Numbered from the stretch's first letter, positions 6,879 to 59,526 are shown. The stretch: 64,000 bases of DNA from an uncultured Chloroflexia bacterium (GCA_963714675.1 CAVQPG010000001.1:44598-108597), one strand, 5' to 3'. A program made the numbers and translations. The notes: a model not told the origin generated them from the sequence alone.

Positions 6879-6904
6879 CGTCGCTCGACGTCGACATCGC
6901 TGGC

Positions 6905-44680: not shown

Positions 44681-45340
44681 GTGACGATCCCGGTCTCGCC
44701 TGCCCCTGCCGCTGCCGTCTTCACCTTTGCCGGCGTCGGTGTCCGCCTGGGGGCCAGCCAGGTCCTCCACGGCATCGATCTGGAGATCCCGGCGGACGGC
44801 ATCACGGTGGTGCTTGGCCCATCAGGGTCGGGCAAGTCGACGCTGACGCGACTCACCAACCGCTTGCTTGACGCCTCGGCCGGAACGGTCAGCCTGCGCG
44901 GCACCGACGTCCGTACCCTGGATGTGCTCGAGCTGCGCCGCACGGTGGGGATGGTCTTCCAGCGCCCGACGCTCTTCGACGGCACCGTCCGCGACAACCT
45001 CATCGCCACGCACGTCGAGGAGCCCGACGCCCACGAGGAGATGCTCGATGCCGTCGGGCTGGAGGCGACCTTCCTCGGGCGCATGGGGGCCACGCTCTCT
45101 GGCGGCGAGGCCCAGCGCGTCTGCCTTGCCCGTGCGCTGCTGATGCGGCCGGACGTGCTGGTGGCGGACGAACCCACGGCCTCCCTGGATCACGAGGCCA
45201 CGTTGGCATTGGAGAGCCTCGCTCGCGGCCTCGCCGACCGAGGCGTACCGATCTTGTGGGTCACCCACGATCTCGGGCAGGTCGAGCGCATCGCCGACCA
45301 GCGCGTGACGCTCGAAGCCGGACGGGTGGTGCCCACGTGA
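44681..45340 (+). CDS. ABC transporter ATP-binding protein (FetA/YbbL-like iron export)
   Basis: Walker A GPSGSGKST, signature LSGGEAQR, Walker B LVADEP; paired with a FetB-like permease. Confidence 0.8.
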   Translation: MTIPVSPAPAAAVFTFAGVGVRLGASQVLHGIDLEIPADGITVVLGPSGSGKSTLTRLTNRLLDASAGTVSLRGTDVRTLDVLELRRTVGMVFQRPTLFDGTVRDNLIATHVEEPDAHEEMLDAVGLEATFLGRMGATLSGGEAQRVCLARALLMRPDVLVADEPTASLDHEATLALESLARGLADRGVPILWVTHDLGQVERIADQRVTLEAGRVVPT

Positions 45341-46110
45341 GCGGACCGGTCGAGCTGGTCGGTGCCATCGCCTCCGGGCTGCTCGTACTGGTCGCCGTCG
45401 GCATCAGCTGGTGGGCCGGCCTGCGCCTCGAACGCGACCTCATCACGGCCGCGCTGCGTGCTGCGGCCCAGCTGGCGCTCCTGGGCCTCGTGCTGGTGGC
45501 CATCCTCACACCGGGTCAACCGCTGCTCCTGTCCTGGCTGTGGGTGGCGGTGATGATCCTCTTCGCGGCCTGGACCGTGCAGCGCCGGGTGCCGAACGTG
45601 CCCCGCATCTGGCTGCTGTCGATGGGCGCCTTCGCGGCTTCAGCCGTGGTCACCCTGGGCATCCTCTTCGGGGCGGGCGTCTTCCCCCTCGACAGCACGA
45701 CCCTGGTACCCCTGGCCGGCCTGATGATCGGCAACTCCATGACCGCGACCGTGCTGGTCGCCCGCCGCATCACGACCGAGTTCAAGGACAAGCGCCTCGA
45801 GGTCGAGGCGCGGCTGGCGCTCGGCCAGCCCTCGTCGGAGGCCGCGGTGCCCTACCTGCGCGAGGCGTTGCGGACAGCCCTCATCCCGCAGATCGAGACG
45901 ACCAAGGCCGTGGGCATCGTCTTCCTGCCGGGCATGATGGTCGGCCTCCTGCTCGCGGGGGTGACGCCGCTCGATGCGGTGCAGGCACAGCTCGTGATCA
46001 TGTACCTCGTGCTCGGCTCGGTCGCGGTCACCACCAGCGTGGTGGCGCTGGGTATGCGCCGCATCCTCTTCACGCCAGCACACCAGCTGCGGCATCTGGT
46101 GAAGGAGTAG
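45337..46110 (+). CDS. ABC transporter permease (FetB/YbbM, UPF0014 family)
   Basis: Eight-TM UPF0014 fold; GTG start overlaps the upstream TGA (GTGA). Confidence 0.8.
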   Translation: MSGPVELVGAIASGLLVLVAVGISWWAGLRLERDLITAALRAAAQLALLGLVLVAILTPGQPLLLSWLWVAVMILFAAWTVQRRVPNVPRIWLLSMGAFAASAVVTLGILFGAGVFPLDSTTLVPLAGLMIGNSMTATVLVARRITTEFKDKRLEVEARLALGQPSSEAAVPYLREALRTALIPQIETTKAVGIVFLPGMMVGLLLAGVTPLDAVQAQLVIMYLVLGSVAVTTSVVALGMRRILFTPAHQLRHLVKE

Positions 46111-46114
46111 CCCG

Positions 46115-47077
46115 ATGCGAGCCATCGTCCAGCCGGGGTACGGCCCGCCCGAATTGGTCGAGCTGCGTGACATGCCGACCCCCAGCCCGGGGGACGGCCA
46201 GGTGCTCGTTCGGGTGCGCAGCTCGTCGGTCAACGCCGCTGATGTCGAGGTCCTCGACGGCTTCTTCTTCAGCCGCATGGTCGCGCCCATCCGGCCGGCC
46301 CATCGGGTGGTCGGCTCCGACGTCGCCGGGGTGGTCCAGCGCGTCGGCGCCGGGGTGACCGACCTGGTGCCAGGTGACGAGGTCATGGGTGACCTCTCCG
46401 AGCACGGCTATGGCGCGTTCGCTGAGTACGCCGTCGCGCCAGCCGAAGCCGTCTGCCGGCTGCCGGTCGGGATCTCACTCGAGGACGCCGGCGCCGTGCC
46501 TTCGGCCGCGTGGGTGGCCATCAAGGGCGTGCGCGACGTTCAGCCGGGCGAGCGCGTCCTGGTCAACGGCGGCGGCGGCGGCATGGGCACGTTCGCCGTG
46601 CAGATGGCCAAGGCGCGCGGAGCTCACGTCACCGGCGTGGACAGCGCGGCCAAGCTGGAGCTCATGCGCTCGCTCGGTGCCGACGAGGTCATCGACTACC
46701 GCGCCGACGACGTGGTCTCCCTGGGCGACCGCTATGACATGGTGCTCGATGTCTTCGCCCGCCGCTCGGTGGCCGAATGGCAGCGAGTCCTGGCGCCGAC
46801 CGGGAAGTACCGCATGGTCGGCGGATCGGCCCTCCGTATCCTGGCGGGCTTCCTGCGTGGACGCATGCTCTCGCGGGCCGATGGACAGAGCCTGGGCCTG
46901 CTCATGGGCTGGCCGCAGACGCGCCTGGACATGGAGGAGACGAACGCGCTGCTCGAGAGCGGACAGGTGCGACCGGTGATCGGGGACCGCTTCCCGCTGG
47001 AGGAGGCCGCGACGGCCCTGCGGCAGGTGAAGGATGGTCGTGCCATGGGCAAGGTGGTCGTCGACATCGGGGCGTGA
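46115..47077 (+). CDS. NADPH:quinone oxidoreductase / zinc-type alcohol dehydrogenase-like (MDR family)
   Basis: MRAIVQPGYGPPELVEL...GGGGGMGTFAVQMAK Rossmann motif. Confidence 0.85.
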   Translation: MRAIVQPGYGPPELVELRDMPTPSPGDGQVLVRVRSSSVNAADVEVLDGFFFSRMVAPIRPAHRVVGSDVAGVVQRVGAGVTDLVPGDEVMGDLSEHGYGAFAEYAVAPAEAVCRLPVGISLEDAGAVPSAAWVAIKGVRDVQPGERVLVNGGGGGMGTFAVQMAKARGAHVTGVDSAAKLELMRSLGADEVIDYRADDVVSLGDRYDMVLDVFARRSVAEWQRVLAPTGKYRMVGGSALRILAGFLRGRMLSRADGQSLGLLMGWPQTRLDMEETNALLESGQVRPVIGDRFPLEEAATALRQVKDGRAMGKVVVDIGA

Positions 47078-47150
47078 GCGCGAGGCCGTTCGCGCAGCTG
47101 ACGGGGGGCTGGGCCGGGCCTGTTGCCTGGGCCCCAGAAGCGCAGCTGTC

Positions 47151-47330
47151 CCTCCCGGGACGCCACGCGACCGGCGGGCCCTCGGTGGCCCCCAGCCGTC
47201 CCACCCGGGACGCCACGCGACCGGTGGGCCTTCGGTGGCCCCCAGCCGTCCCACCCGGGACGCCACGCGACCGGCGGGCCCTCGGTGGCCCCCAGCCGTC
47301 CCACCCGGGACGCCACTCGACCGGTGGGGC
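47151..47330. repeat. 50-bp tandem repeat, about 3.5 copies, each bounded by GGGACG...CGTCCC inverted ends
   Basis: Unit GGGACGCCACGCGACCGGCGGGCCCTCGGTGGCCCCCAGCCGTCCCACCC starting at 47157, 47207, 47257 and 47307 (partial); copies 1 and 3 are identical, copy 2 differs at two positions; the region is intergenic. Confidence 0.8.
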
Positions 47331-47544: not shown

Positions 47545-48522
47545 CTAGGAGCCCGAGATCGTGATGACGGTCTTGCCCTGCGCGTGACCGCTGGCCACGT
47601 GCGCCACGGCTTGGGGTCCCTCATCGAGCGAGAAGGTGCGATCCATGGCGGGCCTGAGCTTGCCCTCATCGACCAGCGCCTTGAGGGCCAGCGCATCAGC
47701 CCCGGTGCTCTGGGAGATGAAGGGCCGGAGCTGCTGCTTGTTGATGATCGAGGTCGCCAAGGCCCTGACCACGTTGTCGACCCCGCCGAACCAGCCGCTC
47801 ACAGAGGCGCCGTTCGAAAGCAGCTTGCCCTCGGGTGTGAGCAACTGCCGCATCTGCCCCATGGGGTAGGCGGCCACATTGTCGAGGATGCGATCGTAGC
47901 GCTCGCTGCTGCCGATGTGATCCTCGGTCTCGTAGTCGATCACGTAATCGGCCCCGAGCGAACGCACCATCGCGACGTTGCGGGTGCTGCACACGCCAGT
48001 GACCTCCGCGCCCATGGCCTTCGCGATCTGGACCGCGAAGCTGCCGACACCGCCCGAGGCGCCGATGACGAGCAGCCGCTGCCCGGGCTCGATCCTGAGC
48101 TGGTCGCGCAGCGCCTGGAGCGCTGTCTGGGCTGAGACTCCCAGGGCCGCGGTCTCGGCGAACGAGAGCGACGCCGGCTTGGGTGCGAGCTTGTCGGTCT
48201 TGGCCACTGCGTACTCCGCGAACGCTCCGGTGCCGTTACCGAACACCTCATCACCGACCGTCACCCCCGAAGCCGAGCTGCCCACGGCCTCGACCACGCC
48301 GGCGAGGTCCATCCCCGGGATGGGGTTCCTCGGCCGGCGCAGGCCGAACATCACGCGCATCGACTTGGGCACCCCGCGGATCACATGGCAGTCACCGATG
48401 TGGATCGACGCCGCGTGGACCCGCACGAGCACAGCGTCCTCCGGCAACTCCGGTCGATCGACCTCACGAACCGACAGCACCGCCTCCGGCTCGCCGTAGA
48501 CCTCCTGGAACAACGCGCGCAT
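47545..48522 (-). CDS. NAD(P)-dependent alcohol dehydrogenase / quinone oxidoreductase (MDR family)
   Basis: MRALFQEVYGEPEAVL...GASGGVGSFAVQIAK; AGGGAG RBS (the ORF-track N-terminal extension over the repeat is rejected). Confidence 0.85.
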   Translation of the reverse strand: MRALFQEVYGEPEAVLSVREVDRPELPEDAVLVRVHAASIHIGDCHVIRGVPKSMRVMFGLRRPRNPIPGMDLAGVVEAVGSSASGVTVGDEVFGNGTGAFAEYAVAKTDKLAPKPASLSFAETAALGVSAQTALQALRDQLRIEPGQRLLVIGASGGVGSFAVQIAKAMGAEVTGVCSTRNVAMVRSLGADYVIDYETEDHIGSSERYDRILDNVAAYPMGQMRQLLTPEGKLLSNGASVSGWFGGVDNVVRALATSIINKQQLRPFISQSTGADALALKALVDEGKLRPAMDRTFSLDEGPQAVAHVASGHAQGKTVITISGS

Positions 48523-48593
48523 CTTCGCTCCCTTTCCACGAGTTCCCGGCGAGGTGACACGACCACACGGTCGTTCGTGGGGTCGAGACCAGC

Positions 48594-49625
48594 TCAGGCG
48601 GCAGGACGCCTCGCGATGACCAGTGTATCGAGGGCGGTCCGGGTGCCCTCCTCGGTCTCGACACGACGCCTGGCGACCTCGGCCACGTCGATCGCGAGCG
48701 TGGACAGCGCCGCCACTGTCTCGTCGAGGTCGTAGCAGCGGTCGGGGGTGGGCGGTCCGCCGTAGCCGTGCTTGATGTTGGTCCGGTCGTGGGCCACCAC
48801 CAGGACGCGTCCGCCGGGTCGCAGCCAGGTGGCCGCGTGCTCCAGGACCGTGCGCACCTGTGCGGGCGGGAGCTGGAGGTAGGCGATGACGACGAGGTCG
48901 ACGGGCTCGGTCGGCGTCCACGTCAGCGCATCGGCGTTGACGGTGACCACGCGGTCGGACACGCCCTTGTCAGCGGCCAGCCGGGCGGCCTTGTCAAGTC
49001 CGCCCTGTGAGAAGTCCACGGCGCTGACGTGCCAGCCATGGGTCGCGAGCCAGACCGCGTTACGGCCCTCTCCGGCGGCGAGGTCGACCGCGCGACCCGG
49101 CGCCAGCCCGCTGATGTGCCGCTCCACGAACTGGTTGGGCTTCACGTCCCAGAGGTACTCGCGACCCGCGTAGCGCTCATCCCAGCGCTCGACCGAGGCG
49201 GCGACCTGGCACTCGGGACAGAGGCCATAGAGCTCGAGCCGATGCTTCTGCACGGTCCAGCCGGTCTTGTGCTCCATGTCCGCGATGGCCCTGCCCAATC
49301 CCAGGTCCGCGACCTCCGTCACGCGCGCGCAGCGCTGGCAGATGACGTGATGGTGGTGGTGGCCCGGGAGGCAGGGCACATAGGCGTGGTCGCCGTTGGG
49401 CAGGTCGATGCGCTCGAGCAGCTGGAGCTCGGTGAACAGGTCGAGGGCGCGGAAGATCGTCGCCCGGCCGATGTCCGCATCGGTGGCCTGGGCATCAGCG
49501 ATGAGGTCGTTGGCAGTGAAGTGGCCGCTGCGGCCGGAGACGAGCCCAGCCACCACGCGTCGCGGCTCGGTCAGCCGATAGCCCGCTTCGCTGAGAGCGT
49601 CGACAAGGGGGTCGGTCATCGTCAT
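48594..49625 (-). CDS. Fur-family transcriptional regulator fused to a C-terminal class I SAM-dependent methyltransferase domain
   Basis: N-terminal ~145 aa Fur/Zur-like (winged HTH, HHHHH, CQRC...CPEC); C-terminal ~200 aa MTase (motif I VDLAAGEGRNAVWLA); a single uninterrupted ORF. Confidence 0.75.
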   Translation of the reverse strand: MTMTDPLVDALSEAGYRLTEPRRVVAGLVSGRSGHFTANDLIADAQATDADIGRATIFRALDLFTELQLLERIDLPNGDHAYVPCLPGHHHHHVICQRCARVTEVADLGLGRAIADMEHKTGWTVQKHRLELYGLCPECQVAASVERWDERYAGREYLWDVKPNQFVERHISGLAPGRAVDLAAGEGRNAVWLATHGWHVSAVDFSQGGLDKAARLAADKGVSDRVVTVNADALTWTPTEPVDLVVIAYLQLPPAQVRTVLEHAATWLRPGGRVLVVAHDRTNIKHGYGGPPTPDRCYDLDETVAALSTLAIDVAEVARRRVETEEGTRTALDTLVIARRPAA

Positions 49626-49637
49626 CTCCGCACCATG

Positions 49638-49660
49638 TTAACGAGATTCAGTCTCGTTTG
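49638..49660. promoter_or_regulatory. Fur-box-like inverted repeat upstream of the fur-MTase gene
   Basis: TTAACGAGA-TTCAG-TCTCGTTT (perfect 7-bp arms AACGAGA/TCTCGTT) 15 nt upstream of the start codon, in the divergent intergenic region shared with the DUF302 gene. Confidence 0.5.
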
Positions 49661-49747
49661 CGTTCGAGGCCATCTCGGATCGACCGACATCGTTTGGCTA
49701 TGCTCGGAGCAGCAGCGAGCCGTAGCGCGCTTGCGAGCAGGGGGAAC

Positions 49748-50159
49748 GATGAGCGACACACTGGGCGAGTACGCCTTCACCATCCATCTCGATGCTTCCT
49801 ACGAGGAAATCCGTGAGCGCACCGAGGCTGCACTGAAGGAGCAGGGCTTCGGCGTCGTCACGGAGATCGACATGCGCGCGACGATGCGCGACAAGCTCGA
49901 CGTCGACTTCCGCAGGTACGCCATCCTGGGCGCCTGTAACCCGAAGCTCGCATTCAAGGCGCTCAGCACCGAGCCGCAGGTCGGGCTCCTGCTGCCCTGC
50001 AACATCATCGTCTACGAGGACGATGACGGCCGAGGCACGACCGTGTCGGTCGTGGATCCGCTGGGCATGCTCGGCGATATCAAGGCACCGGAGCTTCGGA
50101 CGGTCGCCGACGAGGCCCACGCCCGGCTGGCAAAGGTGGCTCAAGCACTCGCCGGCTGA
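49748..50159 (+). CDS. DUF302 domain protein
   Basis: 136 aa with the DUF302 pattern (GFGVVTEIDM...AILGACNP); AGGGGGA RBS. Confidence 0.75.
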
Positions 50160-50184
50160 CCGAGCGACCTGTGGCGCCAACGCA

Positions 50185-50214
50185 AGAGGCCGGCCCCGTG
50201 AAGGGCCGGCCTCT
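50185..50214. terminator. bidirectional terminator hairpin between DUF302 and csp
   Basis: Perfect 12-bp inverted repeat AGAGGCCGGCCC/GGGCCGGCCTCT with a 6-nt loop. Confidence 0.5.
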
Positions 50215-50252
50215 CTGGCGTCTGGGTGGCGCGTCAAGCGCGCCGCGCAGCG

Positions 50253-50456
50253 TTAGACCAGGCGAACGCGCTGGGCCTGCGGGCCCTTCTGGCTCTGCCC
50301 GATCTCGAACTCGACCTTCTCGCCGCCGACGAGGCGGTCGAAGTCGGACGAGCTTTCGAGCTCGTTGCGGTGGAAGAAGTATTCCTTGCCATCATCAGCG
50401 GCGAGGAAACCGAAGCCTCGATCAGAGACGAGCTTCTTGACAGTACCGGTGGCCAT
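50253..50456 (-). CDS. cold-shock protein (CspA family)
   Basis: RNP1/RNP2 motifs (KGFGFL, VFFHxxxL) in a 67-aa protein; strong AAGGAGG RBS. Confidence 0.9.
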   Translation of the reverse strand: MATGTVKKLVSDRGFGFLAADDGKEYFFHRNELESSSDFDRLVGGEKVEFEIGQSQKGPQAQRVRLV

Positions 50457-50638
50457 CGTGGCCCTCCTTGGTAATCCCGAACGAAAGACGAAGAGCGCAC
50501 GGTCCGTTCGAGACAAGAGGCGACCACGCGGGCGAGCTGCGACTTGCAGCGACCTCAAAGAGTACCACTCAACTCAAAATTGGGCTCACCCGAGACTCGG
50601 ACCTGGTGCGCCTGTCATGCGGCGCGTCACCTGACCGG

Positions 50639-52291
50639 TCAGCTGGGCCACGTGGACGCGCTCAGCTCCACGACGCGGTCAACGTGCGTGTCGATGGTGG
50701 GGCGGTGGGAGATGACCAGCACCGTCTTGCCCTCCAGCCACGGGTCCATGGCCGCCCACAGCGCTGCCTCAGTGGTGCTGTCGAGGTCGGCGGTGGCCTC
50801 GTCAAGGACTACCACCGGTGCGTCCTTCAGCACCGCGCGTGCGACCGCCAACCGACGCCGCTCCCCGCCAGAGAGGAGCGTCCCGTCCTCACCCACGACC
50901 GTGTCGTAGCCACTCGGCAGCGACGCGATGAAGCCGTCGAGCTGCGCGATCCCGCAGGCCCGGTCAAGATCCCCGGTCGTCGCGTAGGCATCGGCCACCA
51001 TCAGGTTGTCCGCGATCGTGGCATTGAAGAGATGGACTTCCTGAGGCACCACCGCGAGCAGCGCACGTGTCGCTTCCTGGTCCAGCTCGTGCAGCTCCCG
51101 ACCTCCCAGGCGGATGGTGCCCACGTCGTAGTCCCAGAAGCGCAACAGCAGCGAGACCAGCGTCGACTTGCCGCTGCCCGACGGACCGACGAGCGCCACG
51201 CGCTGCCCTTCCCCGATGGCCAGGCTCAGATCTCGCAGCACCCATGGCTCGGACTCGCCGAAGCGGAACGACAAGCCCTCGATCTCGAGCGTGTGGGCCG
51301 CGGGGAGCGGCGCCGGCTCGACCGGATCGATCACCGGCGGCTGCTCGTCGACCAGCTCGAACACGCGTCTCGCCGAGGCCTTGGTGCTGTCATAGAGCTG
51401 CAGCGAACGCGACAACGGCTGCACGGCCTCGAAGGCAGCGATGGCGGCCAGCGGAAGAGCTGCGAGGAACACGCCTTCGAGCTCACCGGCAGTGACCATC
51501 GGGATGGCCAGGGCGAGGATGACCAGGCCCGCGAGTGACGCGAACAGGCCCGCGAGCGCGTTGGCCACACCTTCGATGGCACCGAGACGCTGTCGGGCGT
51601 CGTCAAGCTCGGCTGCGCGAGCCAGCAGTCGGGCGCGATGTCCGGCCGCAGCATCGAGCGCCACCAGGTCAGCCACGCCGCCGACCTCGTCGCTGAGCAT
51701 CGCGCCGACGTCTCCGCGAAGACTGGCCAGGGCAGCCGACGGAGCGAGCGAGAGCCAGCGGGAGACCAGCGGCAGCACGACCCCGGTGAGCACCAGGAAG
51801 CAGGCCAGGGCGAGGCCGATGGCCAGGTCGAACAGGCCGTAGACGACCGAGACACCCGCGACCACCACGGCAGCTACGACCGGCGGCACCAGCACCCTGA
51901 TGTAGAAGTCCTCGAGCGTGTCGACGTCGTTGACCGAACGCGTCAGCAGGTCGCCGCTGCGTCGGTCGACGAGACGTGCCGGCGCCAGCGGCTCGACCGC
52001 GCGGTAGAACCACACGCGTACGGTCGAGAGGATGCGGAACATGGCGCGGTGGGTGGTGTAGCGCTCCAGGTAGCGGAAGGCAGCCCGCGAGATGGCCAGC
52101 ACGCGCACGCCGGTGATCGCGAGCGCCAGCTCGGCCACGCCGCTAGCGATCGCGGCCTTGGAGATGAGATACGCCGAGAGGCCCATGAGGGCCACGTTCG
52201 AGGCCACGGCCACGACGCCGAACAACCCGCCCGCCACCAGCCATGGCCAGTGCTCGAATACGAGCCTCGAGAGGCGACGCAGGTCGCTCAC
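50639..52291 (-). CDS. cydC: thiol reductant ABC exporter subunit CydC
   Basis: Fused TMD-NBD ABC half-transporter; GTG start overlaps the cydD stop (GTGA). Confidence 0.85.
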   Translation of the reverse strand: MSDLRRLSRLVFEHWPWLVAGGLFGVVAVASNVALMGLSAYLISKAAIASGVAELALAITGVRVLAISRAAFRYLERYTTHRAMFRILSTVRVWFYRAVEPLAPARLVDRRSGDLLTRSVNDVDTLEDFYIRVLVPPVVAAVVVAGVSVVYGLFDLAIGLALACFLVLTGVVLPLVSRWLSLAPSAALASLRGDVGAMLSDEVGGVADLVALDAAAGHRARLLARAAELDDARQRLGAIEGVANALAGLFASLAGLVILALAIPMVTAGELEGVFLAALPLAAIAAFEAVQPLSRSLQLYDSTKASARRVFELVDEQPPVIDPVEPAPLPAAHTLEIEGLSFRFGESEPWVLRDLSLAIGEGQRVALVGPSGSGKSTLVSLLLRFWDYDVGTIRLGGRELHELDQEATRALLAVVPQEVHLFNATIADNLMVADAYATTGDLDRACGIAQLDGFIASLPSGYDTVVGEDGTLLSGGERRRLAVARAVLKDAPVVVLDEATADLDSTTEAALWAAMDPWLEGKTVLVISHRPTIDTHVDRVVELSASTWPS

Positions 52292-54081
52292 GCGTCCACC
52301 TCGCGGTCCTCGCCGAAGTCCTCGACGAGCCGGTAGTAGGCGCCGCCGTCAGCCAGCAGCTCGGCCGGGAGCCCCTGTTCCACCACCCGGCCAGCGTCAA
52401 GCACCACGACCCGGTCGGCACGCTGCGCCAGCCGCAGCCGGTGGGCGATGAGCAGCACGGTCCGGTCCTCCACCAGCCGGTCCAGCGCGTCGGCGATGGC
52501 GATCTCGCTGGCCTCGTCCTGGTGCGAGGTGGCCTCGTCGAGGACGAGCACCGGAGCGTCGCGCAGATAGGCACGGGCGATGGCCACACGCTGCCGCTGC
52601 CCGCCTGACAGCCGCGCGCCGACCTCGCCGACCTCGGTGTCCAAGCCCCTCGGCAGCCGTTCGACGAACTCGGTCACGTTGGCTGCTCGCGCCGCGGCAG
52701 CCACCTCCTCGTCGTGGGCGCCGGGACGCGCGAGGCGGATGTTGTCCGCGATGGAGCCCGCGAAGAGGTACGGCCGCTGCGGCACCCACGCCACCGCCGA
52801 ACGCCAGGCCGCGAGCCCATGCGCCTCGAGCAGGCGGCCGTCGACGCTGATGGTGCCGTGGTCCCGGTCGATGAAGCGCAGGAGCAGACTGCTGATCGTC
52901 GACTTGCCGGCCCCGCTGGCCCCCACCAGTGCCACCGACTCACCCGGGCGCAGCTCGAAGGTGGCGCCGTCGAGCGCCGGGACCTCGCGGCCCGGGTACG
53001 TGAATCGGACGCCGTCGAAGGTGATCCGGGGAGGCTCGGTCACGCCGGCTTCGCTCGGTCCTTCGGCCACTGCGGCCAGCTCGATCATGGCAGACCGGGT
53101 CGGCGTCGGCTCGTCGAGGATCTCGAAGGTGCGGGTGATGACCGCCCGGCCTGCGGTGCCCACGTGGAAGCGCACCGCGAGGGCACGGAGCGGCAGGAAG
53201 AACTCGGGGGTGATGAGCAGCACCGCGAGCGCACGGTCGAACGCGATGGAGCCCTCGAGCAGGCGCAGCCCGATCTCGACAGCCACGAGGGCGATGGCGA
53301 TGGTGGCGCCCCACTCGAGCACGAGCGAGGTCTGGAAGGCCGTCCGCAGCACCTCCATGGTGGCGTCGCCGTAGCGACCGCTGATGTGACGCAGGTTCTC
53401 GAGCTGTTCGCGACTTCGCCCGAACATCTTGAGCGTCCCGATCCCGCGCAGGATGTCGAGGAAGAAGGCGCTGAGCGTGCGCATCTCCATGAAGCGCTTC
53501 TCGCTGACCACGCGCGTGCGACCGCCGATGACGACCAGCAGGAGCAGCAGCAACGGACCGGTGAAGAGCAGCACCAGCACTGACGGCGGGTCCAGCACGA
53601 ACACCAGCAGCAGCACCAGCGCCGGCACGATCATCGCCAGCCAACGTGCCGGCAGGAACTGTGTGACGTAGTCCTCGATGGACTCGAGGCCCCCGATGAG
53701 CACACCGCTGAGCTCCCCTGACCGTTCGTGGCTGGACCAGGTGGGACCCAGGCGCAGCAGCTGTCCGGTGAGGTTGGCCCGAAGCGTGCCCACCAGCCTG
53801 TGCGCCGAGTGCCGAGCGGCCAGCTCCCCGCCCGCCCCAAGGGCCGTACGCAGGAGCAGCAGCAGCAGCGCAAGCCCCAGCAGCGGCAGCACATCGTCGA
53901 GCGTCTGGTCCTGGCGGAACACCCCGGCCACGGCGAGTGCCACCACGAGGAGCTGCGCTACCAGGGCCAGCGTGGCTCCGACGCCGGCGGCCACAGCCAC
54001 GATCATCCAGCGGCGGGCACTCCGGTCATGACGGAGCAGCCGACGCTCCGGGGAGGCGTCGGCAGTCCGTGATCTGATCAT
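52288..54081 (-). CDS. cydD: thiol reductant ABC exporter subunit CydD
   Basis: Fused TMD-NBD (Walker A GASGAGKST) immediately downstream of cydAB. Confidence 0.85.
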   Translation of the reverse strand: MIRSRTADASPERRLLRHDRSARRWMIVAVAAGVGATLALVAQLLVVALAVAGVFRQDQTLDDVLPLLGLALLLLLLRTALGAGGELAARHSAHRLVGTLRANLTGQLLRLGPTWSSHERSGELSGVLIGGLESIEDYVTQFLPARWLAMIVPALVLLLVFVLDPPSVLVLLFTGPLLLLLLVVIGGRTRVVSEKRFMEMRTLSAFFLDILRGIGTLKMFGRSREQLENLRHISGRYGDATMEVLRTAFQTSLVLEWGATIAIALVAVEIGLRLLEGSIAFDRALAVLLITPEFFLPLRALAVRFHVGTAGRAVITRTFEILDEPTPTRSAMIELAAVAEGPSEAGVTEPPRITFDGVRFTYPGREVPALDGATFELRPGESVALVGASGAGKSTISSLLLRFIDRDHGTISVDGRLLEAHGLAAWRSAVAWVPQRPYLFAGSIADNIRLARPGAHDEEVAAAARAANVTEFVERLPRGLDTEVGEVGARLSGGQRQRVAIARAYLRDAPVLVLDEATSHQDEASEIAIADALDRLVEDRTVLLIAHRLRLAQRADRVVVLDAGRVVEQGLPAELLADGGAYYRLVEDFGEDREVDA

Positions 54082-59218: not shown

Positions 59219-59526
59219 CAGGCCGCGGCCGAGTGGGCAGGCTCCTCCAGCGCTTCGACCATGATGGTGGCGGCTTCACGCTTGCGGAGGGAGAGGTGAT
59301 AGCCCTTGACGACGAATTCGAGTGGATCGCCGAGCGGCGCCGCGCGCTGCAGCATGATCGTCTCGCCACGGACGACACCGAGCTCCAGCAGTCTGTGCCG
59401 CGCCGCTGGCCGACCACCGACACGCAGGATCCGGCCGGTCTGACCCTGGCCGAGCTGATCGAGGCTCACGATCGATGCGGCTGCAGGGCAGTACTTGCGA
59501 CATCGCTTGGGTACCGGACGGCCCAT
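59218..59526 (-). CDS. feoA: FeoA-domain protein with short Cys-containing N-terminal extension
   Basis: SH3-like FeoA core ([11 protein letters not shown]...[14 protein letters not shown]...PLEFVV); no good RBS, so the start is uncertain. Confidence 0.7.

Follow-up and report, generated by a model that had tools for sequence, protein, structure and literature searches.

A Fur-family, probably Zur-like, regulator fused to a SAM methyltransferase in the Chloroflexota order Limnocylindrales

Introduction

Why should a metal-sensing repressor of the Fur family carry a methyltransferase at its C-terminus? The question is raised by one gene on a stretch of 64,000 nucleotides from an uncultured Chloroflexia bacterium (GCA_963714675.1, CAVQPG010000001.1:44598-108597), called the window below, with positions counted from its first letter. 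A single reading frame there encodes a Fur-family domain followed by a class I S-adenosylmethionine (SAM) methyltransferase (MT) domain. Fur-family metalloregulators are seen as stand-alone two-domain sensors, whereas here a clade covalently bears an enzyme. One fused protein of this kind is present in the public record as MEX1295995.1 ("transcriptional repressor", Candidatus Limnocylindrales), an annotation that overlooks the enzyme half. We consider it most probable, at roughly 60%, that the gene encodes an autoregulated Zur-like repressor with the MT of an ancestral operon at its C-terminus, reached by way of operon, gene overlap and fusion. The evidence is presented below, together with the alternatives.

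Results

The fused gene

The initial annotation had described a complete Fur/Zur-like domain, with an HHHHH run and two CxxC pairs, joined to a class I SAM methyltransferase in one open reading frame (ORF) of 343 residues without a stop or frameshift at the junction, and both statements were borne out by the ORF, its sequence and the Pfam matches (Table 1). The N-terminal half matches the FUR profile PF01475 at residues 13-133 (E 1.5e-23; 83.7 bits against a cut-off of 23.1) and covers profile positions 1-121 of 121, a full-length match above the curated cut-off that places it in the Fur family. Its HHHHH run occupies residues 89-93, and the CxxC pairs are C96/C99 and C136/C139. The C-terminal half matches Methyltransf_25 at residues 180-272 (E 1.2e-14), with the TehB and TPMT models of Pfam spanning residues 146-320, and contains motif I DLAAGEGRN (181-189), the acidic D204 and the family motif AHDR..HGYGGP (278-291). 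The junction (...LCPECQVAASVERWDERYAGREYLWD...) reads ...LCPECQ-VAAS-VERWDERY... and is in frame throughout; residues 141-146 stand in place of the fur tail and stop codon and of the start and first codons of the MT gene in unfused relatives.

Table 1. Positions in the window of the fused gene, its parts and the adjoining features.
Feature	Position	Strand	Basis and remarks
Fused gene: Fur-family (Zur-like) regulator + class I SAM methyltransferase	48594..49625	-	343 aa, ATG start; ORF list, Pfam, 26 homologous clusters
Fur-family domain, residues 1-140	49206..49625	-	PF01475; recognition helix IGRATIFRAL; Cys4 site C96/C99/C136/C139; Zur-type sensing site E71/C85/H91/H93
Fusion junction, residues 141-146 (VAASVE)	49188..49205	-	DNA and protein junction alignments with L005, L006, L007 and L002
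SAM methyltransferase domain, residues 147-343, Slr1183/TehB-like	48597..49187	-	Pfam, PDB sequence search, Foldseek
Predicted operator: perfect 7-5-7 inverted repeat AACGAGA-N5-TCTCGTT	49640..49658	.	Arms 49640-49646 and 49652-49658
Fur-type 7-1-7 box CGAGACT-G-AATCTCG, core of operator	49642..49656	.	Conservation, position weight matrix (PWM)
Putative -10-like hexamer TAACAT	49635..49640	-	TAnnAT conserved in all orthologous loci
DUF302 gene, 136 aa	49749..50159	+	PF03625, E 6.7e-24; divergent from fused gene
Conserved CGAGCATAGCC / CGAGGATAGCC block beside DUF302 start	49696..49705		Also in L001, L004, L005, L007, L008, L087
MDR-family NAD(P)H quinone-oxidoreductase-like gene	47545..48522	-	Pfam ADH_N/ADH_zinc_N; NCBIfam PIG3-family best match, below cut-off

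The same architecture was found in 26 clusters with 63 member sequences (333-348 residues, 69-92% identity) in a search of 5.8 billion proteins; these were drawn from ENA, JGI, NCBI and Logan assemblies and belong to Candidatus Limnocylindrales/Chloroflexota. In the DNA of two more fused loci (L001 and L004; related loci are given by such numbers) the same junction is read through. The DNA-recognition helix, every metal ligand and the SAM motifs (DLAAGEGRN, D204, AHDR...GYGGP) are invariant in the 27 aligned fused proteins. Among five fused loci the pairwise ratio of nonsynonymous to synonymous substitution rates lay between 0.15 and 0.37 in the Fur half and between 0.19 and 0.33 in the MT half; purifying selection acts on both, and neither is decaying. 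The fusion is a genuine conserved gene.

The architecture had been called unusual, and this judgement holds. In a HMMER search of a 1.84-billion-protein representative library, the 150 best cluster representatives included no protein with both domains, and no second Fur-MT family emerged among them; because of this the architecture appears to be confined to the order Limnocylindrales. Literature searches on Fur-methyltransferase fusions and on Fur-superfamily architectures gave nothing relevant, and as far as the searches reached the architecture is undescribed.

From operon to fusion

A survey of orthologues, as proposed in the initial annotation, found two separate genes in L005, L006 and L007, which are the nearest outgroups, yet one fused gene in the 26 clusters from independent assemblies; the counter-case named in that annotation, orthologues that are always split in two, is thus not borne out. 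The unfused relatives themselves are of two kinds. In L002/L003, L084 and L085 the order is fur (144 residues), a gene for a znuA-like binding protein (316-319 residues) and the MT gene (199-201 residues), the start of which overlaps the stop of znuA; cydDC-like ABC genes with a cold-shock gene border the block at one end and a UPF0014/ABC pair at the other. The L002/L003 proteins are about 72% (Fur) and 71% (MT) identical to the window. In L005, L006 and L007 (70-79% identical) znuA is absent, fur ends with ...CQAAGR*, and the MT start overlaps the fur stop as ATGA, the classical arrangement for translational coupling. Relative to this state, the window, L001, L004 and other main-clade sequences have a deletion of tens of bases, which took the end of fur with its stop codon, together with the start and first codons of the MT gene, and left the junction pattern Q-x-x-x-S-V-E-R-W. 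At 54-59% identity, the fur orthologues of L010 and L011 are more distant; these loci have fur-znuA with no MT nearby, and the MT family is overwhelmingly stand-alone, with about 200 residues. The 25-cluster main fused clade is nested inside the unfused forms in a neighbour-joining tree, which has no bootstrap and is rooted by assumption on the znuA-type loci.

Two fused proteins fall outside this clade. P0025 (locus L087) groups with L006, has a different and longer linker (RQREEAARDPVARW) and shares the signature GCCPxC with the adjacent-gene loci. P0026 (locus L088) branches earlier, and its MT initiation codons are still in frame (…CQRR-MAMERW), the junction codons being ATG GCC ATG GAG CGC TGG as against ATG GCC ATC GAG CGC TGG in L084. 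Its context (YwiC/PAP2/APH) is that of the znuA-type loci, and these features fit a deletion of about 1 kb that would have removed the box described below and znuA. Up to three independent fusions may therefore have occurred in Limnocylindrales, in the main clade, in L087 and in L088, each of the latter two being supported by one short contig. Fusion of this kind is a known evolutionary route, the merging of overlapping, co-regulated operon neighbours, and the series from operon through overlapping genes to fusion, preserved in living relatives, makes a clean natural example of it.

Two observations concern the gene calls in these loci. The called fur or fusion starts are 30 nucleotides too late in L088 (1431..1460), L084 (2568..2597) and L085 (2565..2594), where an upstream in-frame ATG restores an N-terminus MT(S/A)AQPLV... 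homologous to MTMTDPLV of the window. In L007 the MT gene shifts frame at about position 6890, after about codon 153, through a sequencing error or as a pseudogene; this metagenome-assembled genome (MAG) is presumably a long-read assembly, judging from its name.

Operator and promoter

Upstream of the fused gene an inverted repeat, AACGAGA-N5-TCTCGTT, had been reported 15 nucleotides before the ATG. The repeat is perfect, with 5 nucleotides between its arms, and the reported coordinates need only small corrections: it spans 49640..49658 and ends 14 nucleotides before the ATG at 49625. It is the sole inverted repeat found in 49560..49800, and it falls in the 123-nucleotide intergenic region between this ATG and that of the divergent DUF302 gene. 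Across eight orthologous loci the only well-conserved intergenic stretch is ATCGAGACTGA(A/G)TCTCG-TA--ATGG, directly before the start codon, the rest of the region being barely alignable. A lone perfect 7-nucleotide repeat could be chance; its conservation cannot.

The conserved core resembles Fur-type boxes. In the znuA-type loci the boxes stand between fur and znuA and read TGATACT-G-AGTATCA (L002), TGAGACT-A-AGTATCA (L084) and TGAGACT-G-GGTATCA (L085). The classical Fur box is TGATAAT-N-ATTATCA, from which the L002 box differs at one position per half-site. Scanning with YGAKAYT-N-ARTMTCR, one mismatch allowed, gave a single match in most of the 15 related loci; L009 and L011 have two sites each, close together or overlapping. 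All matches in the related loci precede fur or znuA: in L002, L084 and L085 the znuA/aztC-like gene follows the box directly, and in L010 and L011 the box stands ahead of fur-znuA. No other match occurs in about 200 kb of related loci, including the whole window, and in unrelated loci the motif has 3 matches in 764 kb. With the PWM the window operator scores 31 bits and the next best site in the window 15 bits, inside the shuffle range; that site, 59458..59476, was dropped as a second operator candidate, shuffled sequence reaching 19.6 bits. On the 4.8-kb contig of L088 no Fur box is recognisable, and the fusion would there escape autoregulation.

In every locus the right operator arm abuts a TAnnAT hexamer 8-10 nucleotides before the start codon. 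In the window this is TAACAT, 9 nucleotides before the ATG, which shares its last base with the operator. From its conservation across loci we infer that it serves as the -10 of a promoter whose transcript is leaderless or nearly so. The palindrome is thus predicted to be the likely operator of the regulator's own gene, and its position on the promoter would imply repression by occlusion, that is, negative autoregulation.

Identity of the metal

A winged-helix DNA-binding domain and a dimerisation domain with two CxxC pairs for structural zinc mark the Fur family; here the four cysteines and the helix IGRATIFRAL are invariant in 27 sequences, and the secondary structure of the AlphaFold2 model agrees with that fold. 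The regulatory site points further. In alignments with the Zur proteins of S. coelicolor (3MWM) and M. tuberculosis (Zur/FurB, 2O03), C85 falls on Zur C79/C76 and H90-H93 on H84-H87; within the former protein (ScZur), E71 corresponds to D65 and H91/H93 to H85/H87. The ScZur residues D65/C79/H85/H87 form the reference sensing site. A Cys thiolate, two His and an acidic residue, as in the Zur regulatory site, are thus provided by E71/C85/H91/H93, all invariant. The ligand set of PerR has Asp85 at the position corresponding to C85.

The partner gene of the orthologues points in the same direction. The znuA-like protein is a cluster A-I binding protein (PF01297) that, among curated models, matches that of the zinc protein AztC best (210 bits) and MntC next (158 bits); in L002 it has a His (TGHGALGYF) where Mn-type binding proteins have Glu. 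Because of the sensing-site alignment to solved Zur structures and of the znuA/aztC-like partner gene, we regard the regulator as probably Zur-like and zinc as its inferred effector.

The methyltransferase half

The closest solved relative in a PDB sequence search was Slr1183 of Synechocystis (2KW5; E 1.2e-18, residues 148-317), and Foldseek aligned the model to another Slr1183 structure (3MER) with a template-modelling (TM) score of 0.90 and a root-mean-square deviation (rmsd) of 2.1 Å, and to TehB (2XVA) with a TM score of 0.77. Membership of the class I SAM methyltransferases is supported by Methyltransf_25, by the invariant DLAAGEGRN and D204, and by fold matches at E 1e-14. TehB is matched at the domain level (33 bits in Pfam), and the TehB equivalog models stay far below their cut-offs (TIGR00477, 33.8 against 219.5; NF008405, 33.3 against 218). 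Slr1183 is a structural-genomics protein for which a literature search found no function. Elsewhere longer members of the family are fused to OsmC, DsbA, Redoxin/AhpC-TSA and Suc_Fer-like domains (P0136, P0145, P0188, P0199), and by analogy with these partners its chemistry may lie in thiol or chalcogen redox.

The MT half is most likely a SAM-dependent small-molecule enzyme of Slr1183/TehB type, predicted to be active, possibly on a thiol or chalcogen compound, a substrate class suggested by the fusion partners. The initial annotation had offered an enzyme that modifies its target in response to metal, or a regulator with a cofactor-sensing MT fold. Nothing points to the former, or to a cofactor-sensing fold that has degenerated: the SAM-binding motifs are kept, the constraint equals that on the Fur half, and the MT is a former operon partner of the regulator. 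We rejected the idea that the Fur domain guides a DNA methyltransferase, since the fold and the best matches are those of small-molecule methyltransferases and no DNA methyltransferase family was among the Pfam and PDB matches. Among actinobacterial homologues of the MT (Nocardia, Streptomyces; 34-45% identity) the neighbouring genes encode MFS transporters (efflux pumps), an Old-Yellow-Enzyme-type reductase, flavodoxin and DUF4185.

The AlphaFold2 monomer, built from a 27-sequence alignment, has a predicted local distance difference test score (pLDDT) of 85.8 and a predicted TM score (pTM) of 0.56. One modelled helix, 137-152, crosses the junction, with low confidence at residues 151-160. Foldseek aligned the whole chain loosely to winged-helix O-methyltransferases (about 390 columns, rmsd 17-21 Å).

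Neighbouring genes

A DUF302 gene neighbours fur in fused, in adjacent-gene and in some znuA-type loci (L001, L005-L007, L084, L087). The conserved block beside its start is putatively a -10-like TATGCT/TATCCT element of the divergent DUF302 promoter. In L002 two direct copies (GTCCGAGGATAGGCGTCG) occur about 50-90 nucleotides upstream of fur, though there is no DUF302 gene, and the block is for this reason possibly something else, such as the site of another regulator. The block lies about 40 nucleotides beyond the operator, which is outside the putative DUF302 core promoter and upstream of its putative -35, and in znuA-type loci the conserved DUF302 promoter block is kept without any box. 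With the palindrome on the regulator's own -10 and some 40 nucleotides outside the DUF302 core promoter, shared control is not indicated, and control of DUF302 by the palindrome seems unlikely. The literature on DUF302 offers only a loose link to sulfur-oxidiser genomes.

On the other side, 71 nucleotides past the fusion stop and on the same strand, lies the quinone-oxidoreductase-like gene, which has the same position in L001 and L087 and is possibly co-transcribed with the fusion. A 50-nucleotide tandem repeat (47143..47328; 3.7 copies, 94% matches) sits between two convergent MDR/quinone-oxidoreductase-like genes, this one and that at 46115..47077 (+); L006 has repetitive sequence at a comparable spot downstream of its MT gene. 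The wider flanks of the window hold two cydDC-like ABC exporter genes and a gene for a 67-residue cold-shock protein (50253..54081), and a UPF0014 (FetB-like) permease with an ABC ATPase (45256..46110). Both flanks are kept in L001, L002, L084 and L085, and the YwiC and DUF302 genes between the cold-shock gene and fur are variable.

Discussion

The comparison of loci suggests the following course. In the ancestral arrangement of fur, Fur box, znuA/aztC-like gene and MT gene, the MT would have been expressed alongside the zinc-uptake gene behind the box, and its place there predicts induction once the regulator leaves the DNA. In closer relatives, which have no znuA, fur and MT would be translationally coupled through ATGA with the box upstream of fur, and in the clade of the window a short deletion would have removed the fur stop and MT start to give a single polypeptide. 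The metal-loaded dimer is predicted to bind the 7-1-7 box and, overlapping its own -10, to repress its own gene. Under zinc scarcity the apo-protein would leave the DNA, more fusion protein would be made and MT activity would rise, as in the ancestral operon. The fusion itself may have arisen by accident from overlapping genes and be tolerated, or it may provide a physical coupling of the two activities.

Several points weigh against this reading. The window contains no znuA and no second operator that would show a zinc regulon for this genome. A promoter scan of 48400..50300 found no full sigma-70 consensus. The third metal site is incomplete, with G111 where S. coelicolor Zur has E105, and AztC is matched below its cut-off of 350. 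Both domains are confident in the monomer model and their mutual orientation is not reliable. The actinobacterial MT homologues have no zinc or Fur neighbours, from which we take the Fur link to be specific to this lineage. The unbootstrapped tree with its assumed root, and the single contigs behind L087 and L088, also belong here. Finally, the regulator reaches 82 bits with the Bacillus-type Fur model and 58 bits with PerR, all far below cut-off, and 51.6 bits with the E. coli-type Zur model NF008646, for which the cut-off is 167; the curated Fur, PerR and Zur equivalog models are built on distant phyla.

These scores, the best of which are to Fur and PerR models, lead to the alternative that the regulator belongs elsewhere in the Fur family (Fur, Mur, Nur or PerR-like), which would place the MT in an iron, manganese or oxidative-stress response. 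The fusion of the MT family elsewhere to peroxiredoxin and thioredoxin-fold proteins would suit such a role, and PF01297 includes Mn and Fe transporters, with MntC as second-best match. However, C85 occupies the Zur-specific thiolate position, where PerR has Asp, the four ligands together reproduce the Zur M-site, and the binding protein scores higher with AztC than with MntC and has, in L002, His in place of the Mn-type Glu. We consider this alternative unlikely.

A second alternative accepts a zinc sensor and concerns the coupling of the domains, namely that the protein is an allosteric "trigger enzyme" in which SAM, S-adenosylhomocysteine (SAH) or the substrate tunes DNA binding, or zinc occupancy gates the MT; metal and metabolite signals would be integrated in one protein, and the fusion would have been selected for. 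Up to three fusions within one order would be in line with this, as would the conserved junction pattern of the main clade and a linker of about 5 residues, modelled as part of a continuous helix, which could pass on a conformational change. On the other hand, the inter-domain confidence of the model is low (pTM 0.56). Genes overlapping by ATGA fuse readily through small indels, and recurrence can thus be mutational; and the fused L088 without an operator, together with linkers that differ in length and sequence among the three events, suits neutral tolerance. Allostery is, in our view, about as doubtful as a different metal. That the fusion is adaptive, giving a regulator that answers to zinc and to SAM, SAH or a methyl acceptor, or a zinc-switched enzyme, with the repeated fusions reflecting selection, we hold to be a little more doubtful again. 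If true, a catalytic or second-signal domain would for the first time be built into a member of the Fur family, and Slr1183-type methyltransferases would seem to have a so far unrecognised role in zinc starvation.

An assembly or sequencing error (a lost stop or a frameshift) joining two normal genes in the window is effectively excluded: although the nearest outgroups have ATGA-overlapping genes that a single-base error could fuse, and frameshifts do exist in related MAGs such as L007, the window junction differs from the unfused state by tens of deleted bases and not one, the identical junction recurs in 25 further clusters that differ in project and technology, the frame is unbroken in the DNA of L001 and L004, and purifying selection extends over the whole ORF.

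For the reading that we prefer, an autoregulated Zur-like repressor that has absorbed its operon partner, the fusion would act as a "Rosetta stone" tying a widespread Slr1183-like MT family to zinc-limitation regulons. It also defines, by sequence, the operator of a Zur-like regulator for an uncultured order of Chloroflexota that is abundant in soil and freshwater.

The regulator half can be compared with the Zur proteins of actinobacteria and Firmicutes (3MWM, 2O03), with which it shares the Fur fold, the Cys4 structural site, the Asp/Glu-Cys-His-His sensing site and a palindromic 7-1-7 operator overlapping the promoter; its orthologues adjoin a boxed znuA/aztC-like gene. It differs by the C-terminal enzyme domain of 200 residues, by a third site without Glu, by passing no curated Zur model and by its half-site YGAKAYT, the Zur boxes of model organisms being AT-rich. 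The enzyme half shares with Slr1183 (2KW5/3MER) the class I fold, the size and the WDERY, EGRN and GGP motifs, whereas it is only 25-28% identical and Slr1183 stands alone. TehB (2XVA) has the same fold and is likewise stand-alone, at 17-20% identity and with failed equivalog models (34 against 219 bits).

A parallel at the level of the regulon is MSMEG_6055 of M. smegmatis, a class I SAM methyltransferase gene that ranks with those depending most on Zur and zinc (about 500-fold), has Zur boxes and lies near znuABC (PMC7174638). The fur-box-znuA-MT operons of the relatives likewise place an MT under a Fur box; MSMEG_6055 is a separate gene and not fused. The fusion described here echoes this Zur-dependent methyltransferase and gives a handle on the role of SAM methyltransferases under zinc starvation.

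In its order of domains, winged helix and then Rossmann-type MT, the predicted protein recalls the O-methyltransferases DnrK, RdmB and SibL. Their winged helix is a dimerisation module without Fur homology, not a metal-sensing DNA binder, and the modelled likeness is an analogy of domain order only.

The nearest counterparts in organisation are the bifunctional repressor-enzymes or "trigger enzymes" BirA, PutA and NadR. As in these, DNA-binding and catalytic domains stand in one chain, both conserved, and a self-regulating repressor would be joined to an enzyme from its own pathway or regulon. BirA, PutA and NadR employ other DNA-binding folds and have the ligand of the enzyme as signal, whereas here the sensor would be the Fur domain's own metal site, as predicted from its sequence.

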